DNA of 64,000 nucleotides, taken from NCBI GenBank assembly GCA_001898995.1, contig MKVZ01000004.1, positions 109,115-173,114 on the forward strand, in the 5' to 3' direction. The stretch is from Rhizobiales bacterium 63-22 (GTDB taxonomy: Bacteria > Pseudomonadota > Alphaproteobacteria > Rhizobiales > Rhizobiaceae). The first letter of the stretch is position 1. Each line of letters opens with the position of its first letter. A model generated the notes under the pieces. It was not told the origin of the DNA and ran no database searches. It was given only the letters and a program-made list of their open reading frames with translations. Below are positions 40,341 to 48,639 of the stretch, piece by piece. The position numbers and the translations under genes were made by a program.

Positions 40341-40379
40341 GATCGCGGCGTCCATCCCGATTCCCGCGAGGCCTTTTTC

Positions 40380-40949
40380 ATGAACAGTCCGAACCATCAG
40401 AACGACCGCCGTGTTCTCGTCATCATGGGCAGCGTGCGCGCCGGCCGACACTGCCCGCAGATTACCGAGTGGGTGGTCGGCATCGCCCGGCAGACGGACG
40501 GCCTTTCGTTCGAGACGATCGACCTGCGCGACTGGCATCTGCCGCTCGACGACGAGCCGGCGATCCCCGCGCAGGGCAGCTACAACCAGCCCCACACCAA
40601 GGCGTGGAGCGAGAAGGTCGCCGGCGCCGACGCGGTCGTTATCGTCACGCCGCAATATAACTGGGGCTACCCGGCGGTGCTGAAAAACGCGCTCGACCAT
40701 CTTTACGCCGAATGGCGCGACAAGCCGCTGCTGATCGTCACCTATGGCGGCCATGGCGGCGTCAAATGCGCCGCGCAGCTCCGGCAGGTGGCCGAGGCCC
40801 TCAAGATGAAACCGTGCGCGACCATGCCCGCCCTCACCATCAGCCACGAGGCCATCATCGGCGGCAGGCTCGATGCCGGAAAGGACCTGCTGGCCTTCGA
40901 GGCCTCGGTGATCGAGGCCGTCGGGGAACTGAAAGAGGCGCTGTCATAG
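40380..40949 (+). CDS. NAD(P)H-dependent FMN reductase
   Basis: GSVRAGR, DAVVIVTPQYNWGYPAVLKNALD.L..EW..KP, YGGHGG. Confidence 0.92.
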   Translation: MNSPNHQNDRRVLVIMGSVRAGRHCPQITEWVVGIARQTDGLSFETIDLRDWHLPLDDEPAIPAQGSYNQPHTKAWSEKVAGADAVVIVTPQYNWGYPAVLKNALDHLYAEWRDKPLLIVTYGGHGGVKCAAQLRQVAEALKMKPCATMPALTISHEAIIGGRLDAGKDLLAFEASVIEAVGELKEALS

Positions 40950-40989
40950 GTGACAGCGCGCGCATAAGGGAGTGACGGCGGTATGGCCT

Positions 40990-41925
40990 TCAGGGAAGTC
41001 CTGCCCCGTCCGCGCGCTCCCGCTGCTCCGTCACGTAATCGATGAAGGCACGCAGGGGTCTGGGCATGAAGCGGCTTGAGAAGTACAGGCGCGGACCGTC
41101 GAAGGCGGGCCACCAGTCGGCCAGAACCGGCAGCAGCGCCCCGCTCTCCAGATGCGGGTCGAGCCAGTTGCGGAACATATAGACCAGCCCGTGTCCGGCC
41201 ATGGCCAGATCGATCAGCGCCGTCGAGCCCGGCGTCCCGATGACGATGCGGGCTGGCGGATCGACCACCAGCGTCTCGCCGTCCCTGGCAAACTCCCATT
41301 CGGACATCGCGCCGCTCGCAAAGCGTGTGCGTATGCAGTCATGGTCCAGAACGTCCGCCGGATGCCGCGGCACGCCGCGCCGTTCCAGATAGGCGGGCGC
41401 GGCGGCCAGCGCGCCCCATTGCCTGCGGGGGCCGATCGGCACCGCGATCATGTCCTGCGCCAGATGCTCGCCATAACGTATGCCCGCGTCGCAGCCGGCC
41501 GCGTTGATGTCGATGAGCCGGTCGTCCACCATCACCTCGATCTGCACGCCCGGATGCGCGGCGAGAAACCCGCCGATCAGCGGCGGCAGGATGTCGGTCA
41601 TCACCGCGCCCGGCACGTTCAGCCTGAGCCGCCCCCGCACCTCGCTTTGCGAACTGGCGGCGTCGTCGAGCGCGGCGCGGGCTTCCGCCATCACCGGCCC
41701 GATGCGTTCGGCCAGGGCATGTCCCGCCTCGGTGAGCCGCACGCTGCGCGTGGTACGGGTGAAAAGCGGCACGCCGATGCGCGCCTCCAGCCGCGAAACC
41801 GTCTCGCTGACCATGGCCGGAGAAACGCGCAGCCAGCGCGCCGCCGTGCGGAACCCGCCCGATCGGGCGACGGCCAGAAAGACCGACAGGTCATCGAGGG
41901 GCAGCAATTGATTATTGTTCGCCAT
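40990..41925 (-). CDS. LysR-family transcriptional regulator
   Basis: L..F..VA..GGF..AA..L......VS..V.RLE..IG..LF.RTTRSV.LTEAG, DAGIRYG substrate domain. Confidence 0.93.
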   Translation of the reverse strand: MANNNQLLPLDDLSVFLAVARSGGFRTAARWLRVSPAMVSETVSRLEARIGVPLFTRTTRSVRLTEAGHALAERIGPVMAEARAALDDAASSQSEVRGRLRLNVPGAVMTDILPPLIGGFLAAHPGVQIEVMVDDRLIDINAAGCDAGIRYGEHLAQDMIAVPIGPRRQWGALAAAPAYLERRGVPRHPADVLDHDCIRTRFASGAMSEWEFARDGETLVVDPPARIVIGTPGSTALIDLAMAGHGLVYMFRNWLDPHLESGALLPVLADWWPAFDGPRLYFSSRFMPRPLRAFIDYVTEQRERADGAGLP

Positions 41926-41934
41926 GGCGAACAA
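41915..41934. promoter_or_regulatory. Perfect 20-bp palindrome over the LysR start codon (candidate LTTR box)
   Basis: TTGTTCGCCATGGCGAACAA, containing T-N11-A (41918/41930). Confidence 0.6.
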
Positions 41935-42006
41935 CCTATTCGCCCGCATCCCGGTTATCAACACCTTCGCGATCACCCATATTGTCAGGGAAAGGAGATT
42001 TCCCTC

Positions 42007-42924
42007 ATGACTGACAACAGGACTGAAAATCTGCCGGAAAACCCGAACGGGCAATCGCCGGTTTCGGCCTCCGCCGCCGGGCGCTTCACATTTCCCGGCA
42101 CATCCATTTCCGTCAACCGCATGGGTTACGGCGCGATGCAGCTTGCCGGTCCGCATGTGTTCGGCGAGCCGCGCGACCCGGACGAGGCGCGCGCCGTGCT
42201 GCGCGAGGCGCTGGCGCTCGGCGTCGATCATATCGACACCAGCGATTTCTACGGTCCCTATGTGACCAACCGGCTCATCCGCGAGACGCTGCACCCCTAC
42301 CCCGCGCATCTGACGCTGGTGACCAAGATCGGCGCATGGCGCGACGACAAGGGCGACTGGCTGCCGGAGCGCAGCCCGGATTTCCTGCGCAAATCCGTCG
42401 AGGACAATCTCGAACGGCTCGGCCTTGACCGCATGGCCATCGTCAACCTGCGCATGTTCACGCCGGAAGACGACATCGCCGCCCCGATGCGGGTCATGCG
42501 GCAGATGCAGGACGAGGGGCTTATCGCCCATATCGGCCTCAGCAATGTCGACGACACGCAATTGCGCGTGGCGCGGGACATCGCGCCGGTGGTCTGCGTG
42601 CAGAACCAGTACAATCTGGTGCATCGCGAGAATGACGGCATGATCGACGGCCTTGCCAGGGACGGCATCGCCTTCGTGCCCTTCTTCCCGCTCGGCGGCT
42701 TCAGCCCGTTGCAGACGGAAGAACTGAACCGTGTCGCCGGGGAAATGCAGGCGACGCCGCAAGGCGTGGCGCTGGCATGGCTGCTCGCGCGCAGCCCCAA
42801 CATCCTGCTGATACCGGGCACGTCGAGGCGTACGCACCTGCGTGAAAACATCGCTGCCGCAAGCCTGATGCTCAGCGCGCCGCACATGGCCCGGCTGAAC
42901 GCCATAGGGCGCCTCTCGACCTGA
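42007..42924 (+). CDS. Aldo/keto reductase
   Basis: MGYGAMQL.GP, IDT.DFYG, VTK.G, IGLSN, VQNQYN, PFFPLGG, LLIPGT...HL.EN. Confidence 0.93.
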   Translation: MTDNRTENLPENPNGQSPVSASAAGRFTFPGTSISVNRMGYGAMQLAGPHVFGEPRDPDEARAVLREALALGVDHIDTSDFYGPYVTNRLIRETLHPYPAHLTLVTKIGAWRDDKGDWLPERSPDFLRKSVEDNLERLGLDRMAIVNLRMFTPEDDIAAPMRVMRQMQDEGLIAHIGLSNVDDTQLRVARDIAPVVCVQNQYNLVHRENDGMIDGLARDGIAFVPFFPLGGFSPLQTEELNRVAGEMQATPQGVALAWLLARSPNILLIPGTSRRTHLRENIAAASLMLSAPHMARLNAIGRLST

Positions 42925-42930
42925 TGGTAT

Positions 42931-42946
42931 CGGGCCGAAAGGCCCG
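42931..42946 (+). terminator. GNRA-capped hairpin after aldo/keto reductase
   Basis: CGGGCC-GAAA-GGCCCG. No strong U run. Confidence 0.45.
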
Positions 42947-42967
42947 TGCCTGAGCCCGCAGCCTGAC

Positions 42968-43078
42968 CGCTCTATTTGTTTTTACGCATTATCCTACGTG
43001 TCGAAGCAGGATTAGAAATCAGTCCAGTGGACTGATTTCCCTGCGGAGGCGCTTCGCACTTTCGCTGGAAATGCTCTA
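42968..43078. repeat. Truncated palindromic repeat copy 7 with a nested ~58-bp palindromic insert
   Basis: Ends match copy 3. The centre is replaced by TGTCGAAGC...GAAATCAGTCCAGTGGACTGATTTC...GCTTCG. Confidence 0.8.
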
Positions 43079-43309
43079 TAGCCCCGGATCTTCCTCCAGC
43101 AGGCCGCTTACGAAATCGAACAGTCCGGGGCGGCGGTCGCGGCGCAGGCGTTCCGCCGTGATGATCGCCTTGATCGCCGCATAGGAGCGGTCGAGGTCCT
43201 CATTGATGACGATATAGTCGTATTCCACCCATTTCCTGATCTCGAAACGGGCATTCTGGAGCCGTGTCTCGATCACGTCCGCCGTGTCCTCGGCGCGGCG
43301 GTTGAGGCG
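43076..43309 (-). pseudogene. gmk: Duplicated 3' 78 codons of gmk (direct repeat of 45787-46020); lies in an open 84-codon ORF 43076-43330
   Basis: Encodes the same 77 aa as the gmk C-terminus. 9 nucleotide differences, all at third codon positions. Confidence 0.9.
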
Positions 43310-43326
43310 GTACATGATCGCGCCAC

Positions 43327-44211
43327 TCACTTAAACGCTTCGATCAGGAAGTCCAGAAAAACCCGAATTTTCGGGGCGATATATTGCCGCGAAGCATAGA
43401 CCGCGTAGAGCGTCGTTTCGACGGTGCTCCAGTCTTCCAAGGCCGGTTGCAACCGGCCATTCCTCAAATCGTTTTCGACATAGGGGCGCGGTATCAGGCT
43501 GACACCGAACCCCGTCCGCAGGGCATCGCGAACGGCAAGGCTGGACGTGACTGAATAGCGTGCCGCGACGGCAATCCGCTCCATGCGTCCGTCCTTGCTG
43601 AACTCCCATGCGTCCGCATGACTGGAAAGGCCGAACCGGATGTGGTCGAGCGCTTTCAGATCGGATGGCGTTTCAGGCACGCCGTGTTTTTGGAAATAGG
43701 ACGGCGCGGCGCAAAGCACATGCGGCATGACCGCCAGTTTTCGCGCGATCAGACTGGAATCTTCAAGATTGTCGCTGCCCCGTATGGCAAGGTCGAACCC
43801 TTCCCGCAGCATATCGACCCGCCGGTCGTCGAGATGCAGATCGAGCCTCAAGTCAGGATAATACGACAGAAATTCGGGGATCGCTTCCGAGAGCCGAGTC
43901 AAGGTGACGGTCATCGGAGCATTGACGCGCAAGGTACCGCTTGGAGCGGCCTTGATTGGACATAGAGCCTGATCCGCTTCGGCGAGTGCATCCAACCCGC
44001 GCGTGACATGCTCCAGATAGAGCCGGCCTTCTTCCGTCAAGGCCATGCGTCGTGTCGTCCGGTTGATGAGGCGCACACCCACATGCGCCTCTAACTCGGC
44101 AATGTTCTTGCTGATCGCGGCAGGGGAAAGCCCAAGCCTTCGCCCGGCCTCGGCAAAACTGTTTCGTTCGGCCACATGACGAAAGACGTTCAAGGCGGTC
44201 AGGCGATCCAT
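43327..44211 (-). CDS. LysR-family transcriptional regulator (DmlR/CrgA-like)
   Basis: [24 protein letters not shown]...SK....LE...[16 protein letters not shown]. Confidence 0.94.
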
Positions 44212-44303
44212 CTTATTATTCTCTATTGGTGAATTATATCTTCCAATTGTTGCATATTATCCCTTTCAAGTGAACGTGCTATCTGGTTCCGACAACAATC
44301 CGT

Positions 44304-44930
44304 TTGGAGCGATACATGACCAACCCAGCCATCTCCGTCATCGAGCAGCGCATATCCGCCAATCTGTTCGACGCATCGCACAATTTGTCGGATGCAGAGA
44401 TCGCAGAACTGGTGCGGCTCGCAACACGCGCACCAACCGCCTACAATCTTCAAAACTGGCGTTTCATTGCGGTCCGTACAGCGGAAGCGAAATCGCGTTT
44501 GCGGGCCTTGGCATGGAACCAGCCCAAGGTCGAGGATGCAGCCGTCACTTTCATCATTTGCGGTGTGTTGCCCGACGCGGAAACTATCCCCGAAAGACTG
44601 CACCCATCGGTCGCAGCCGGATATATGCCGGCGGATATGCCTTCTGCATGGCAGACCGCAGCGAGCGCGCAATATGCCGATCCGCAGGCGGCGCGCGACG
44701 AAGCTGTGCGTTCAGCAACCTTGGGCGCGGCAACATTGCTCCATGCCGCCGAAGCATTTGGCCTCGCCTCCGGCCCGATGGTCGGATTCGACGCCAGGGG
44801 TGTGGCGCGTGCGTTCGGTCTTCAGACGAATGAGATGCCGGTGATGCTCGTTGCGGTTGGCCGCGCCGCACCCGGCAACTGGCCACAAAAGCCGCGTCGC
44901 CCGCTTGCGGAAGTTTTGGAACTCAAATGA
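44304..44930 (+). CDS. Nitroreductase family protein
   Basis: IEQR.S...FD, RAPTAYNLQNWRFIAV, GLASGPMVGFD, MLVAVG, QKPR.P. Confidence 0.92.
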   Translation: MERYMTNPAISVIEQRISANLFDASHNLSDAEIAELVRLATRAPTAYNLQNWRFIAVRTAEAKSRLRALAWNQPKVEDAAVTFIICGVLPDAETIPERLHPSVAAGYMPADMPSAWQTAASAQYADPQAARDEAVRSATLGAATLLHAAEAFGLASGPMVGFDARGVARAFGLQTNEMPVMLVAVGRAAPGNWPQKPRRPLAEVLELK

Positions 44931-45781
44931 CGAAGCGCATATCCGATCTGCTGCTGACAGCGATTGCGCCAGCCATATGGGGCAGCACCTACATTGTCAC
45001 GACCGAATTTCTGCCGGACTTCTCGCCGCTGACCGTGGCCCTATTGCGAGCCTTGCCCGCCGGTCTGCTGCTACTCCTGATCGTGCGTCAGCTTCCATCG
45101 GGAATCTGGTGGCTGCGCATCTTCACACTCGGCGCGCTCAACTTCTCGATTTTTTGGAGCATGTTATTCATTTCGGCCTACCGTCTGCCGGGCGGGGTTG
45201 CGGCGACATTGGGGGCGGTTCAACCGCTAATCGTCATTTTTATTGCCGCAGCCTTGCTTGGCAGAACGATCCGTCTCACATCGGTCCTTGCCGCAATCAT
45301 CGGGCTTACGGGTGTCGCATTGCTGGTGCTGGCACCCAATGCGGCGCTCGATTCCATCGGTGTTGCAGCGGGCCTTGCCGGAGCCATATCCATGGCCTTC
45401 GGAACCGTGCTAACCCGCAAGTGGCAGCCTCCTGTGCCGCTGCTCACCTTTACCGCATGGCAATTAACGGCGGGCGGCATTCTTCTTGTTCCGCTGATCG
45501 TGCTGTCGGAACCGGCCATCCCGCGTCCCTCGACTATCAATCTGTTCGGCCTCGTATGGCTCGGACTGATCGGCGCCGCCCTGACTTATGTTTTATGGTT
45601 CCGGGGTATTGCGCGGATCGAGCCCGCGGCGGTTTCCGTGTTGGGGTTCCTCAGCCCTGCGATTGCCGTACTGCTCGGATGGTTCTTCCTGCATCAATCG
45701 CTAACCCCAGTTCAAATCGTCGGGGTCGTGTTGGTGCTCGCAAGCATCTGGCTCGGTCAACGCACCGACCGCGCTGCCTGA
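44927..45781 (+). CDS. EamA/DMT transporter, PecM-like
   Basis: DLLLTAIAPAIWGSTYIVTTEFLP, LRALPAGLLL, AYRLPGGVAA.LG..QP, KWQPP, 10 TM. ATGA overlap with the nitroreductase. Confidence 0.9.
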   Translation: MTKRISDLLLTAIAPAIWGSTYIVTTEFLPDFSPLTVALLRALPAGLLLLLIVRQLPSGIWWLRIFTLGALNFSIFWSMLFISAYRLPGGVAATLGAVQPLIVIFIAAALLGRTIRLTSVLAAIIGLTGVALLVLAPNAALDSIGVAAGLAGAISMAFGTVLTRKWQPPVPLLTFTAWQLTAGGILLVPLIVLSEPAIPRPSTINLFGLVWLGLIGAALTYVLWFRGIARIEPAAVSVLGFLSPAIAVLLGWFFLHQSLTPVQIVGVVLVLASIWLGQRTDRAA

Positions 45782-45786
45782 TCTCC

Positions 45787-46449
45787 CTACAGCCCCGGAT
45801 CTTCCTCCAGAAGACCGCTCACGAAATCGAACAGGCCGGGGCGGCGGTCGCGGCGCAGGCGTTCAGCCGTGATGATCGCCTTGATCGCCGCATAGGAGCG
45901 GTCGAGGTCCTCGTTTATGACGATATAGTCGTATTCCACCCATTTCCTGATCTCGAAACGGGCATTCTGGAGCCGCGTCTCGATCACGTCCGCCGTGTCC
46001 TCGGCGCGGCGGTTGAGGCGCTGCTGCAATTCGCGCATGGTCGGCGGCAGGATGAAGATCGACACCACGTCGGCGGGCATCTTGGCCTGCAACTGCTCCG
46101 CGCCCTGCCAGTCGATGTCGAACAGCATGTCCTGCCCGTCGGCAAGCGCGTTTTCCGCCGTCTCGCGCAGCGTGCCGTAGAAATTGCCGTGTACCTCGGC
46201 CCATTCGATCAGTTCGTCATTGTCGCGCAGGCGCTCGAACTCGCGGATGGTCTTGAAATGATAATGCACCCCGTCGATCTCGCTCGGCCGGCGCGGACGC
46301 GTGGTCACGCTGACGGAGAGGCCCAGCTTCATCTTCGGGTCTTCCAGCAGCAGCCGGGCGATGGTGGACTTGCCCGCGCCCGACGGCGATGAGATCACCA
46401 CCATCAGGCCCCTGCGCGCGACGCCGTTCTCAACCGAGGAAATGGCCAT
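45787..46449 (-). CDS. gmk: Guanylate kinase
   Basis: [53 protein letters not shown]. Confidence 0.97.
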
Positions 46450-46457
46450 GCCCGATC

Positions 46458-47393
46458 TTACTCCAGATTCTGTATCTGCTCGCGGAACTGGTCGACCGCG
46501 ACCTTCAGTTCGAGGCCGATGGCCGTGACCGACGCCGCGTTCGACTTGGAGCACAATGTATTCGCTTCACGATTAAATTCCTGTGAAAGAAAATCGAGCT
46601 TGCGCCCCACCGGTCCGCCGGCGGCGAGCAGCCTGCGCGCGGAAGCGACATGGGTGGAAAGCCGGTCCAGCTCTTCCTGAATGTCGGCCTTGGTCGCAAG
46701 AAAGGCGGCTTCCTGATAAAGCCGCCCCTCGTCCAGTTCACGCGTGCCGCCCGCACTGTCGAGCAGCAGCGCCACCTGCGCGCCCAGCCGCGCCCGGATC
46801 GCCTCCAACCCACGCGACGGATCGGCACGCGCGGATTCAGTCAGCCGTTCGATCGTGTCGATATGGGTGGACAGGATGGCGAAAAGTGCCGCGCCCTCCT
46901 GCCGGCGCGCCTCGGCGACGGCTTCCAGCGCGCCCTCGAAGGCCGAAACGACGGCTGCTTCCAGCGCTGCCCGCGCCTCCTCGCTCTCGTCCGCCTGCGT
47001 CTGATCGACGACGCCCCGCAGCGACAGAAGCCCGTCCACGCTCGCCGGCGCGAGGCCGTGGCGGTCCTGCAACTCGGCGGAGAGCCTCAGCACCTCGGCC
47101 AGAACGGCATGGTTGACGGTGAAATTCGCCTCGCCGCCGGCGCGCTCGACGGTGAGCGAGGCCTGAAAATTGCCGCGCGCGAAATGGCGCGCCAGCACCG
47201 AGCGCACCGGATGCTCCACCGCCTCGAATCCCTGCGGCAGGCGCAGGCGCAGATCCAGCCCCTTGCCGTTGACGGAGCGTACTTCCCATGTGATGCGCGC
47301 CTCGCCAATATCCGTTGCACCGGCCTGCGTCTTCCCGGCCGCCTCGTATCGGGCGGCATGGCGCGCAAATCCGGTCATGCTCTGAAGCGTCAT
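46458..47393 (-). CDS. yicC: YicC/YloC-family endoribonuclease
   Basis: [54 protein letters not shown]. Confidence 0.94.
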
Positions 47394-47427
47394 GCGGTCA
47401 CGTCCCCTCTCGTCTGCCCCTGTGCGT

Positions 47428-48639
47428 TTACTGCGCCGGGGCTGAACCGCTGCCGGGGCCGTCCGTCGATCCGCCGGCGTTGCCCTTCTGCTGCTCCGTC
47501 TCGCGCCATTTGCGCACGTTTTCATTATGCTGCTTCAGCGTCGAGGAAAAGACATGGCCGCCCGTGCCGTCCGCGACGAAATAGAGGTCCTGCGTGTCTA
47601 GCGGATTGGCCACCGCCTCCAACGCCGCCTTGCCCGGATTGGCGATCGGCCCCGGCGGCAGGCCGTTGATGATATAGGTGTTGTAGGGTGTCGGCTTTTC
47701 GATATCCGACTTGAAGATCGGACGGTCGGCGGGCTTGCCCGCGCCGCCGAACAGGCCGTAGATGATGGTCGGGTCGGATTGCAGGCGCATGCCCTTCTTC
47801 AGCCGGTTGAGGAACACCGAAGCCACATGCGGACGCTCGGCGGCAATGCCCGTCTCCTTCTCCACGATGGAGGCCAGCGTCACGAACTGGTTCTCGTCCT
47901 TGAGCGGCAGGCCCGGCTTGCGCGACGCCCACAGTTCGTCCACCAGCTTCTTCTGCGCCGCCATCATGCGCTCGATGATCTCGGTGCGCGGGGTTCCGCG
48001 CGTGAAGTTGAGCGTGTCGGTGAAAAGCGAGCCTTCCGGCGGCATCTCCTTCGGCATGGGGCCGGAGAGCATCGGATCGGCGGCGATGCGGTCGAATATC
48101 TGCTTGACCGTCAGCCCCTCGGGAATGGTCAGCGGATAGACGATGGATTTGCCGCTGATGAGAATATTCATCACCTCGCGCATGGAGGCGCCGGCGGGAA
48201 TGGCGTATTCGCCGGCCTTGAGGTCGTCCTCGTGGCCGAGCGTGCGCACGCCGTAGCGGAAAATGCGCGCGTCGGAGACGATGCCACGGCTTTCGAGACC
48301 GTTGGCGACCTCCGAAATACCCGCGCCGCGCTTGACGAAGAAGGTCGTGGAGGCGGTGAGCGGCCCGTTGGCGTCGAACTGCGCCCGGCCGAAATAGAAC
48401 AGCGCCGACGCCGCCAGCAGCACCAGCACTACCAGCGACAGCACGAAATTCATGAAGACGACAATCTGGCTGTGCGCCTGACGCGAGCGCCGACGCTGCG
48501 AAGAAGCCGGATTCGCCGCCGAATCCTGGGCCGAATTCTGGGCCGAATTCGGCACGGCTTCCGGCGTCACGGGCCCGGTTTTTTCGGCCGCGGGCTGCTC
48601 GCCGGCGGAATTGCTTCCGGTCTGCGCCTGTGAATTCAC
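47428..48639 (-). CDS. mltG: Endolytic murein transglycosylase MltG (YceG)
   Basis: TM anchor, IPEGLT, LASIVEKET, SVFLNRL..GMRLQSDPT, YNTY...GLPPGPIANPG. Confidence 0.94.
   Translation of the reverse strand: MNSQAQTGSNSAGEQPAAEKTGPVTPEAVPNSAQNSAQDSAANPASSQRRRSRQAHSQIVVFMNFVLSLVVLVLLAASALFYFGRAQFDANGPLTASTTFFVKRGAGISEVANGLESRGIVSDARIFRYGVRTLGHEDDLKAGEYAIPAGASMREVMNILISGKSIVYPLTIPEGLTVKQIFDRIAADPMLSGPMPKEMPPEGSLFTDTLNFTRGTPRTEIIERMMAAQKKLVDELWASRKPGLPLKDENQFVTLASIVEKETGIAAERPHVASVFLNRLKKGMRLQSDPTIIYGLFGGAGKPADRPIFKSDIEKPTPYNTYIINGLPPGPIANPGKAALEAVANPLDTQDLYFVADGTGGHVFSSTLKQHNENVRKWRETEQQKGNAGGSTDGPGSGSAPAQ

Follow-up and report, generated by a model that had tools for sequence, protein, structure and literature searches.

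Directly behind the essential guanylate kinase gene gmk of Rhizobiales bacterium 63-22, three accessory genes lie between two copies of the 3' end of gmk itself, and the question raised by this locus is how such an arrangement came about. The locus was examined within a stretch of 64,000 nucleotides (nt) of contig MKVZ01000004.1, positions 109,115 to 173,114 (assembly GCA_001898995.1), referred to below as the window. The host genome, assembled into 20 contigs totalling 4.14 Mb, belongs to the Brucella/Ochrobactrum group, judged by the organism names in its gmk and TldD protein clusters. The three genes encode a LysR-family regulator, a nitroreductase-family protein and an EamA-family transporter of the drug/metabolite transporter (DMT) superfamily, and are together called the cassette; the 3' end of the intact gmk gene is called tail B, and the displaced copy beyond the LysR gene is called tail A or the remnant. 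The arrangement is probably an insertion with long target duplication made by the recombination machinery of the host, without a site-specific recombinase or a transposase.

A repeat search of positions 41000-48000 returned a single pair of long direct repeats, 43076-43309 and 45787-46020, which are 234 nt in length, 96.2% identical and 2711 nt apart from start to start. Each corresponds to the last 77 codons of gmk plus the stop codon. Identity starts exactly at the stop codon (43076 and 45787; CTA on the plus strand) and breaks off sharply beyond 43309 and 46020, at gmk codon 143. Ungapped alignment of the two tails gives nine differing sites, all at third codon positions and all synonymous (ACA/ACG, ATC/ATA, AAT/AAC, GCG/GCT, GGA/GGC, GTA/GTG, GGC/GGT, CTG/CTT and CTA/CTG), and these single-nucleotide polymorphisms (SNPs) reach as far as codon 76 of 77. 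The 77-residue translations (RLNRRAEDT...EEDPGL*) are identical. Repeats of this length with the same nine codon pairs had been claimed in the initial annotation of this DNA, and both procedures confirm them. By enumeration, 24-30% of all single-base changes in the gmk tail are synonymous, and the probability of nine synonymous changes out of nine under neutrality is P = 3e-6 to 2e-5; the synonymous divergence (dS) between the tails is about 0.18 and the non-synonymous divergence (dN) is 0. A dead copy would gather mostly non-synonymous changes and, because the differences are purely synonymous, divergence of a dead tail copy in place can be excluded. The proposal, made already at the annotation stage, that both tails diverged as functional gmk alleles is supported by the synonymous-only differences and also by residues that the tails have in common.

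These residues place the two alleles more closely. Both tails encode EIR, VEY, KAI, VSG and PGL*, residues missing from all 19 congeneric species compared here. The tails are therefore two alleles of one narrow clade rather than one resident tail and one from a distant host, and because both share lineage-specific residues the recombination partner would have been a close relative. When the SNPs were polarised with the 19 outgroup species, only the two sites that are invariant in the genus were informative, and at each of them tail B carries the derived base; the remaining seven show saturation. Tail A is the more ancestral-looking allele. Since the remnant has no non-synonymous change (0 changes at 175 non-synonymous sites), the event appears young relative to the split of the alleles, having taken place within roughly the last one-fifth of that time by our own estimate. 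The initial annotation had the cassette arrive recently from a close relative: the shared residues agree with a close partner clade, recency is bounded by the lack of decay in the remnant, and no donor was found.

The interval between tldD and gmk (40341-45786 here) was compared in the same 19 species and behaves as a hotspot in the genus. It measures 27 bp in G002, in which tldD abuts gmk, 400-1300 bp in several species and more than 1.5 kb in some, so that across the genus it spans 27 bp to more than 5 kb with accessory genes varying by species. The block of flavin mononucleotide (FMN) reductase, second LysR and aldo/keto reductase (AKR) genes that fills the tldD side of the interval here is also present at this place in four other species, and in 4 of the 19 relatives (G016, G014, G024 and G013) the second LysR and AKR genes are followed directly by gmk, uninterrupted. 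G016 (L005) aligns as one piece over window positions 41627-43309, with AKR, a structured repeat element and gmk contiguous. Alignments of other species to tail A run 6-26 nt beyond the stop codon into the flank (16-26 nt in L007, L012 and L020). Tail A with the element downstream of it is best taken as the genus-typical 3' context of gmk, in effect the empty site, because tail A keeps the genus-typical gmk 3' flank. A single uninterrupted target in genomes lacking the insert, as looked for in an insertion with long target duplication, is found at the level of the genus, that is, in other species.

The repeat element in this flank (42929-43076) matches Rfam family RF02604 ('Brucella sRNA CI153', where sRNA stands for small RNA) with an E-value of 4e-18 and 82.6 bits, short of the gathering score of 137. 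Its fold is a long hairpin with a minimum free energy of -61.8 kcal/mol (z -3.05). Elements of this type, about 110-150 nt long, occur in dozens of copies of 80-95% identity in the host genome and in every species of the genus. They may correspond to the palindromic Bru-RS repeats of Brucella.

The gene order on the minus strand is yicC, gmk, 5 nt, EamA, nitroreductase, LysR, 17 nt, remnant, repeat element, AKR, second LysR, FMN reductase and tldD. EamA and gmk are convergent, with their stop codons 5 nt apart; the nitroreductase gene is divergent from LysR across a control region of 92-104 nt, and its 3' end overlaps the start of EamA by 4 nt. It was therefore an overstatement to describe the block as inserted into gmk, as had been done earlier, since gmk is intact and the block begins 5 nt past its stop codon. 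The 2477-bp insert between the repeats is taken up by exactly three genes and, because these fill the interval, no room is left for a recombinase or an insertion sequence (IS). The cassette ends near the natural ends of both outer genes, LysR homologues stopping 1-15 codons after a conserved F. No transposase domain was detected in the cassette with Pfam, no inverted repeats were detected at its boundaries by the repeat search, and the 17-nt junction has no second copy in the genome when up to two mismatches are allowed. The features of an IS or transposon insertion are thus not those of this locus: the duplication is 234 nt long, its copies are non-identical, and transposase and boundary inverted repeats are lacking. 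The statement that the block has neither integrase nor IS agrees with Pfam, and the tyrosine recombinase domain PF00589 is absent from the whole window. As to composition, the cassette has 58.6% GC, compared with 62.7% for the genome, about 65.5% for both flanks and 65.7% for the AKR side. The earlier description of a lower-GC block is accurate in direction, but the effect is mild, the cassette being a modest outlier within the lowest 10% of the genome's 2.5-kb windows. Judged from the Pfam families only, the cassette looks like a small detoxification and export unit in which a LysR regulator controls a nitroreductase and a DMT exporter.

None of the 43 other species of the genus carries the cassette; the only related gene among them is a LysR homologue with 61% amino acid identity on another replicon of G009. 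Outside the genus, LysR, nitroreductase and EamA genes recur together as a conserved unit in many Alpha- and Betaproteobacteria. A short contig of a metagenome-assembled genome (MAG; L023) carries the best-matching unit (92, 87 and 83% amino acid identity), the unit of Aquamicrobium soli is 85, 85 and 80% identical to the cassette genes, and an 85% LysR homologue is present in Sandaracinobacteroides. The unit is found also in Mesorhizobium, Aureimonas, Phyllobacterium, Azospirillum, Trinickia and others, and on megaplasmids of Ensifer, Sinorhizobium, Shinella and Paracoccus. Neither at the 80 loci examined that have EamA relatives nor on plasmids does the unit stand beside gmk or yicC, which gives no indication of a native synteny between gmk and EamA, and the DNA downstream of the LysR homologues is mutually unrelated. 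The EamA and LysR proteins of the cassette are the sole members of their 90% clusters among about 15 billion proteins. These comparisons support a cassette foreign to the genus.

Direct repeats around the module in other genomes were found only in Mesorhizobium sp. M00.F.Ca.ET.216.01.1.1 (L056:3474-9776), where the unit, together with an epimerase gene, lies between two full-length GntR/FCD genes. The GntR pair is 88% identical over 704 nt, a suggestive case of the module being bracketed by a duplicated neighbour. A separate, highly mobile EamA gene with 74% amino acid and 72.5% nucleotide identity to that of the cassette is carried, without LysR and nitroreductase, on more than 3000 enterobacterial plasmids. 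Essentially identical copies occur in Pseudomonas, Enterobacter, Aeromonas, Edwardsiella, two Brucella/Ochrobactrum species and MAGs labelled Collinsella, Treponema and others. This plasmid-borne gene is possibly the pecM-like gene beside tet(A).

From these features we infer the following route. The ancestral local order would have been AKR, repeat element and gmk, with AKR and gmk convergent. DNA from a closely related lineage, whose gmk tail differed by a dS of about 0.18, would have recombined at the tldD-gmk interval, and in that donor lineage the LysR/nitroreductase/EamA module would already have stood 5 nt behind the gmk stop codon. At one end a homologous crossover would have occurred in or upstream of the gmk 3' end, and at the other an illegitimate join would have linked DNA ending 17 nt beyond the LysR stop codon to codon 143 of gmk. 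Equivalently, a non-replicating circle of gmk tail and module would have integrated by one crossover in the tail, as in a Campbell-type insertion. Either way the product would be an intact gmk with the tail of one allele, the module, and the tail of the other allele as a dead 234-nt remnant followed by the original downstream element; both routes give the same product and the data do not separate them. An allele that already preceded the module would account for both limits of the homology, exactly at the stop codon and, at the opposite end, abruptly at codon 143. Homologous recombination needs a close relative as partner, which fits the lineage-specific residues in both tails. Homology-facilitated illegitimate recombination (HFIR) and the single-crossover circle, both named as candidates from the outset, remain the best mechanisms.

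Several points weigh against this account. Only 5 and 17 nt separate the cassette ends from the coding ends, which is tidier than a random illegitimate join would usually be and would fit a defined mobile unit. The account presupposes an earlier step that brought the module behind a gmk stop codon in some lineage, and microhomology at the illegitimate joint could be seen only against the donor sequence. Searches of public contigs turned up no donor, no same-species strain with an empty site and no second strain with the cassette. In experiments HFIR is rare and best documented in naturally competent species.

The roles of donor and recipient might also be exchanged. The lineage would then have possessed gmk, EamA, nitroreductase and LysR in this order, and the DNA from tldD to AKR, with the repeat element and a broken gmk end, would have come in, with homology on the tldD side as its anchor and an illegitimate join behind LysR, so that the remnant would be the foreign piece. 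This mirror event is unlikely, though it deserves to be kept in view: it fits the structure equally well, gives the same product, explains the beginning of the remnant at an arbitrary codon as the broken end of a donor fragment, and is in keeping with the patchiness of the AKR block (4 of 19 relatives) and the more ancestral look of tail A. Neither of the points opposing it is decisive, namely that the cassette is the compositional outlier when set against the AKR side and the genome, and that it alone is absent from the whole genus and so makes the simpler newcomer. Composition, and distribution within the genus, lean slightly towards the cassette with tail B as the incomer over tail A with the AKR side, tail A then being the presumed resident. 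The earlier suggestion that the cassette brought its own tail stands in so far as one of the two tails came with incoming DNA; an incomer made up of the cassette and tail B would be the mildly favoured version.

A further alternative is a duplication in place, in which template switching or repair of a staggered break would first have made two identical tails, one of which was later replaced by the allele of a relative. Insertions of the type treated by Nobusato are usually described as duplicating the recipient's own target (PMC2853133), and allelic replacement of core genes is common. Two events would be needed, however, and with SNPs up to codon 76 of 77 the replaced stretch would need to stop only a few bases away from the stop codon, unless the donor already had the cassette, which amounts to the recombination of a relative's gmk-linked module preferred here. 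In-place duplication is accordingly rated as very improbable.

The tidy ends of the cassette draw attention to a further possibility, that it is the remnant of an integrative element without its integrase (a cis-mobilizable element, CIME, or mobilisable islet) that a tyrosine integrase encoded elsewhere moved in trans, with a phage-type attachment site (attP) carrying a synonymous gmk 3' end and a crossover near codon 143. The layout matches that of e14 at icd/icdC (PMC13626634), the genome encodes recombinases of the kind needed (11 tyrosine-recombinase hits), and an island at a tRNA-Gly gene, described below, shows that long repeats flanking an attachment site (290 nt, 98%) exist in this genome. 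Against this, only 17 and 5 nt are non-coding, leaving no room for arm sites, and no integrase is encoded in the cassette, in the window, or within 100 kb of gmk in the host genome or in ten relatives. The nearest tyrosine recombinase, of about 315 amino acids, lies 150 kb from gmk, has a counterpart 132-141 kb from gmk in 7 of 10 relatives, and is presumably a conserved Xer gene. Nor does gmk recur as a target. Among 44 genomes of the genus a second gmk tail occurs in the host only, with none in the other 43, and 400 genomes of the order yielded no true duplication of the gmk tail; cores under about 60 nt would have escaped these searches. The cassette relatives at 80 loci are never at gmk, and the literature searched, with its limited coverage, contains no report of gmk as an attachment (att) site. 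The evidence supports gmk as a non-recurrent target, in line with the doubt voiced in the initial annotation that it is a known one, and the integrase in trans, listed there as an option, finds no support; an integrase-dependent origin is held to be improbable.

Some candidates were set aside in the course of these searches. Apparent double gmk tails in G240 and G359 proved to be gmk genes split over contig ends. A dif-like site, as used by Xer recombinases and integrative mobile elements exploiting Xer (IMEX), or an integron attC site in the tail was weighed by eye only and dropped.

An island of canonical type was revealed by comparison of the host genome with itself. It lies at tRNA-Gly(CCC) (C17:198406-213724), is 15 kb in length with 49% GC, and is flanked by 290-nt direct repeats of 98% identity that cover the 3' end of a Lipoprotein_15 gene and the 5' half of tRNA-Gly(CCC). 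Its cargo includes a tyrosine integrase, a B-family DNA polymerase, a reverse transcriptase and an AAA_15 ATPase, and it may possibly be a defence island. The long flanking repeat is the only feature common to this island and the gmk cassette.

An assembly artefact from two collapsed strains, or an old vertical paralogy of the gmk tail, is hardly credible. It is true that several public contigs break in or beside the repeats. The arrangement is present, however, in contigs of at least five independent assemblies (ERZ28594721 of ENA, GCA_051939965.1, GCA_017304885.1, JGI 3300025006 and JGI 3300006184, with GCA_051939985.1 added later). Exact-protein look-ups led to these contigs, which match the window at 99.96-100% identity for 5-17 kb; in two of them both repeats are spanned. 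Spanning contigs are L103/L105 of ERZ28594721 and the window's own 1.0-Mb contig, and contigs of other assemblies measure up to 2.27 Mb. Independent assemblies thus span both repeats and the cassette at 100% identity, and a strain collapse would not put both alleles in one molecule around the cassette. A collapse, which had been named beforehand as a way in which the duplication could prove false, is for these reasons very unlikely. Paralogy is excluded by the single tail in 43 other species and by a remnant without non-synonymous change.

All public contigs with the cassette come from the same clone, and one clone is what has been sampled. Exact-protein look-ups of gmk, EamA, AKR and yicC variants returned only this clone, at 99.9-100% identity, and a metagenome scan with gmk, in which near-identical records may have been lacking, returned nothing closer than 89% amino acid identity. 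DNA of 99.9-100% identity, up to 17 kb long, is present in many unrelated metagenome assemblies and MAGs, including the GCA_0519399xx series and Logan SRR33436080; either the clone is distributed very widely or it contaminates sequencing projects repeatedly. Two contigs at first suggestive of variation were rejected as chimeric MAG contigs. In L112 (GCA_051939345.1), a would-be sister lineage at 96.8%, all 30 mismatches fall within 118 nt and the rest is identical, clone DNA being joined to a 72% LysR/AKR homologue; in L194 (GCA_051940465.1), a would-be rearrangement, clone DNA is joined to an electron transfer flavoprotein (ETF) gene of another organism. Such chimeras could mislead strain comparisons.

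Systems to which the gmk locus may be compared are known. Insertion with long target duplication is said to have been treated by Nobusato et al. in 2000, HFIR by de Vries and Wackernagel in 2002 and by Meier and Wackernagel in 2003, C-terminal displacement in Rhs arrays by Jackson in 2009, and the insertion of e14 and phage 21 at icd by Hill et al. in 1989. In suicide plasmids, Campbell-type insertion-duplication proceeds by a single crossover in a cloned fragment, leaving direct repeats around an insert that RecA can remove again or amplify. The gmk locus shows such direct repeats of a gene fragment around an insert; unlike the laboratory construct, a natural circle of gmk tail and three genes has not been observed here.

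The class of insertions with long target duplication was defined for restriction-modification genes: they are shorter than 20 kb, have no mobility gene and are flanked by direct repeats of 30-420 bp with 93-99% identity, which often overlap the 3' end of a gene, the target being single-copy in insert-free genomes (Furuta, Abe and Kobayashi 2010, PMC2853133). The repeats are read there as the recipient's own target in duplicate (PMC2853133). The gmk locus agrees with this class in every feature that was compared, with repeats above 30 bp (234 nt, 96.2%), an insert of 2477 bp and no mobility gene. It differs in its LysR/nitroreductase/EamA cargo, which is not of the restriction-modification kind, in an empty site known from other species only, and in the nature of the repeats, which the purely synonymous differences show to be two alleles, one of them having travelled with the incoming DNA. 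This signature of two alleles is clearer at gmk than in the class as described.

HFIR has been proposed for displaced 3' gene ends in arrays of the type VI secretion system (T6SS) and Rhs (Kirchberger 2017, PMC5361080). The orphan 3' end downstream and the lack of a recombinase are features that these cases and gmk have in common, as would be a homologous anchor in a conserved gene and an illegitimate join at the other end. In Rhs and T6SS, however, the displaced ends differ in sequence and function, providing new toxin tips, whereas at gmk, an essential housekeeping gene, both ends specify one and the same protein sequence. At icd/icdC of Escherichia coli the intact gene ends in the tail of the element e14, and the displaced C-terminal part lies beyond the element as a pseudogene (PMC13626634). 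As with e14 and phage 21, a near-synonymous 3' end is supplied to a housekeeping gene and the original end is left as a C-terminal pseudogene. Unlike the gmk cassette, which is 2.5 kb long and without a recombinase, the 15-kb prophage remnant e14 encodes an integrase and undergoes site-specific excision induced by the SOS response; neither a cognate integrase nor a recurrent att site was found at gmk.

Viewed against these systems, the gmk case is a clean and fairly ordinary example of gene gain by host recombination, of a class already known. Its value lies in an unusually legible footprint of accessory genes entering a core-genome hotspot without mobile-element machinery, in which the silent differences between the tails show that the incoming DNA carried its own copy of the end of an essential gene, and also bound the age of the event. 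RecA-dependent excision or amplification between the gmk repeats is plausible, and the three-gene block is predicted to be prone to such loss or amplification. A more far-reaching variant may be imagined, a minimal mobile element without any enzyme, in which the synonymous gmk tail would serve as a homing arm: RecA would loop out the tail and the three genes as a circle between the 234-nt repeats, the circle would spread to related strains by conjugation, transduction or uptake, and one crossover in gmk would let it re-enter. This is doubtful at best. If true, the essential gene would always be restored, insertion would never be lethal and loss would always be clean, and the locus might exemplify a general but little-described means by which small gene cassettes move. 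It would represent a new kind of system only if the same cassette proves to move between strains.

Table 1. Features at and around the gmk locus (window coordinates unless a contig of the host genome is named)
Feature	Position	Strand	Remarks
FMN reductase	40380-40949	+	accessory gene, tldD-gmk interval
Second LysR	40990-41925	-	accessory gene, tldD-gmk interval
Aldo/keto reductase (AKR)	42007-42924	+	accessory gene, tldD-gmk interval
Multi-copy structured repeat element	42929..43076	-	native gmk 3' flank, now behind the remnant; resembles Brucella sRNA CI153
Tail A, displaced gmk 3' remnant	43076..43309	-	77 codons + stop, no 5' part; Guanylate_kin profile 129-181 of 182
17-nt junction	43310..43326	-	GTGGCGCGATCATGTAC (gene orientation), from LysR stop to remnant start; presumed illegitimate joint
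Cassette LysR-family regulator	43327..44211	-	294 amino acids; Pfam HTH_1 1.4e-20, LysR_substrate 9e-44
Nitroreductase-family gene	44316..44930	+	204 amino acids as called in public assemblies; Pfam; TTG start at 44304 also possible
EamA (DMT) family transporter	44927..45781	+	284 amino acids; Pfam; EamA/PecM-like exporter
Intact gmk	45787..46449	-	220 amino acids; Guanylate_kin 6e-48; last 234 nt (45787-46020) are tail B
yicC	46458-47393	-	upstream of gmk
Further repeat-element copies	C4:191307-191414, C8:106060-106164, C19:147015-147120		host genome

The remnant retains an open reading frame (43076-43330, minus strand) of 79 codons from an ATG at 43315, which lies 11 nt past the LysR stop codon, or of 84 codons from a GTG that overlaps this stop codon as GTGA. 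It is annotated as a gene of 79 amino acids in public assemblies. A function of the remnant appears unlikely from its sequence, its intactness being explained by its youth, and the 79-84-codon 'guanylate kinase' frame at 43076-43330 is better treated in annotation as a gene remnant. A scan of the region for promoters and terminators gave nothing above shuffle expectation. Elsewhere in the host genome, tandem direct repeats occur at C4:551471-554527, with units of about 1.1 kb that are 87-94% identical, and at C8:50752-51541, as a 403-nt pair of 98.8% identity.

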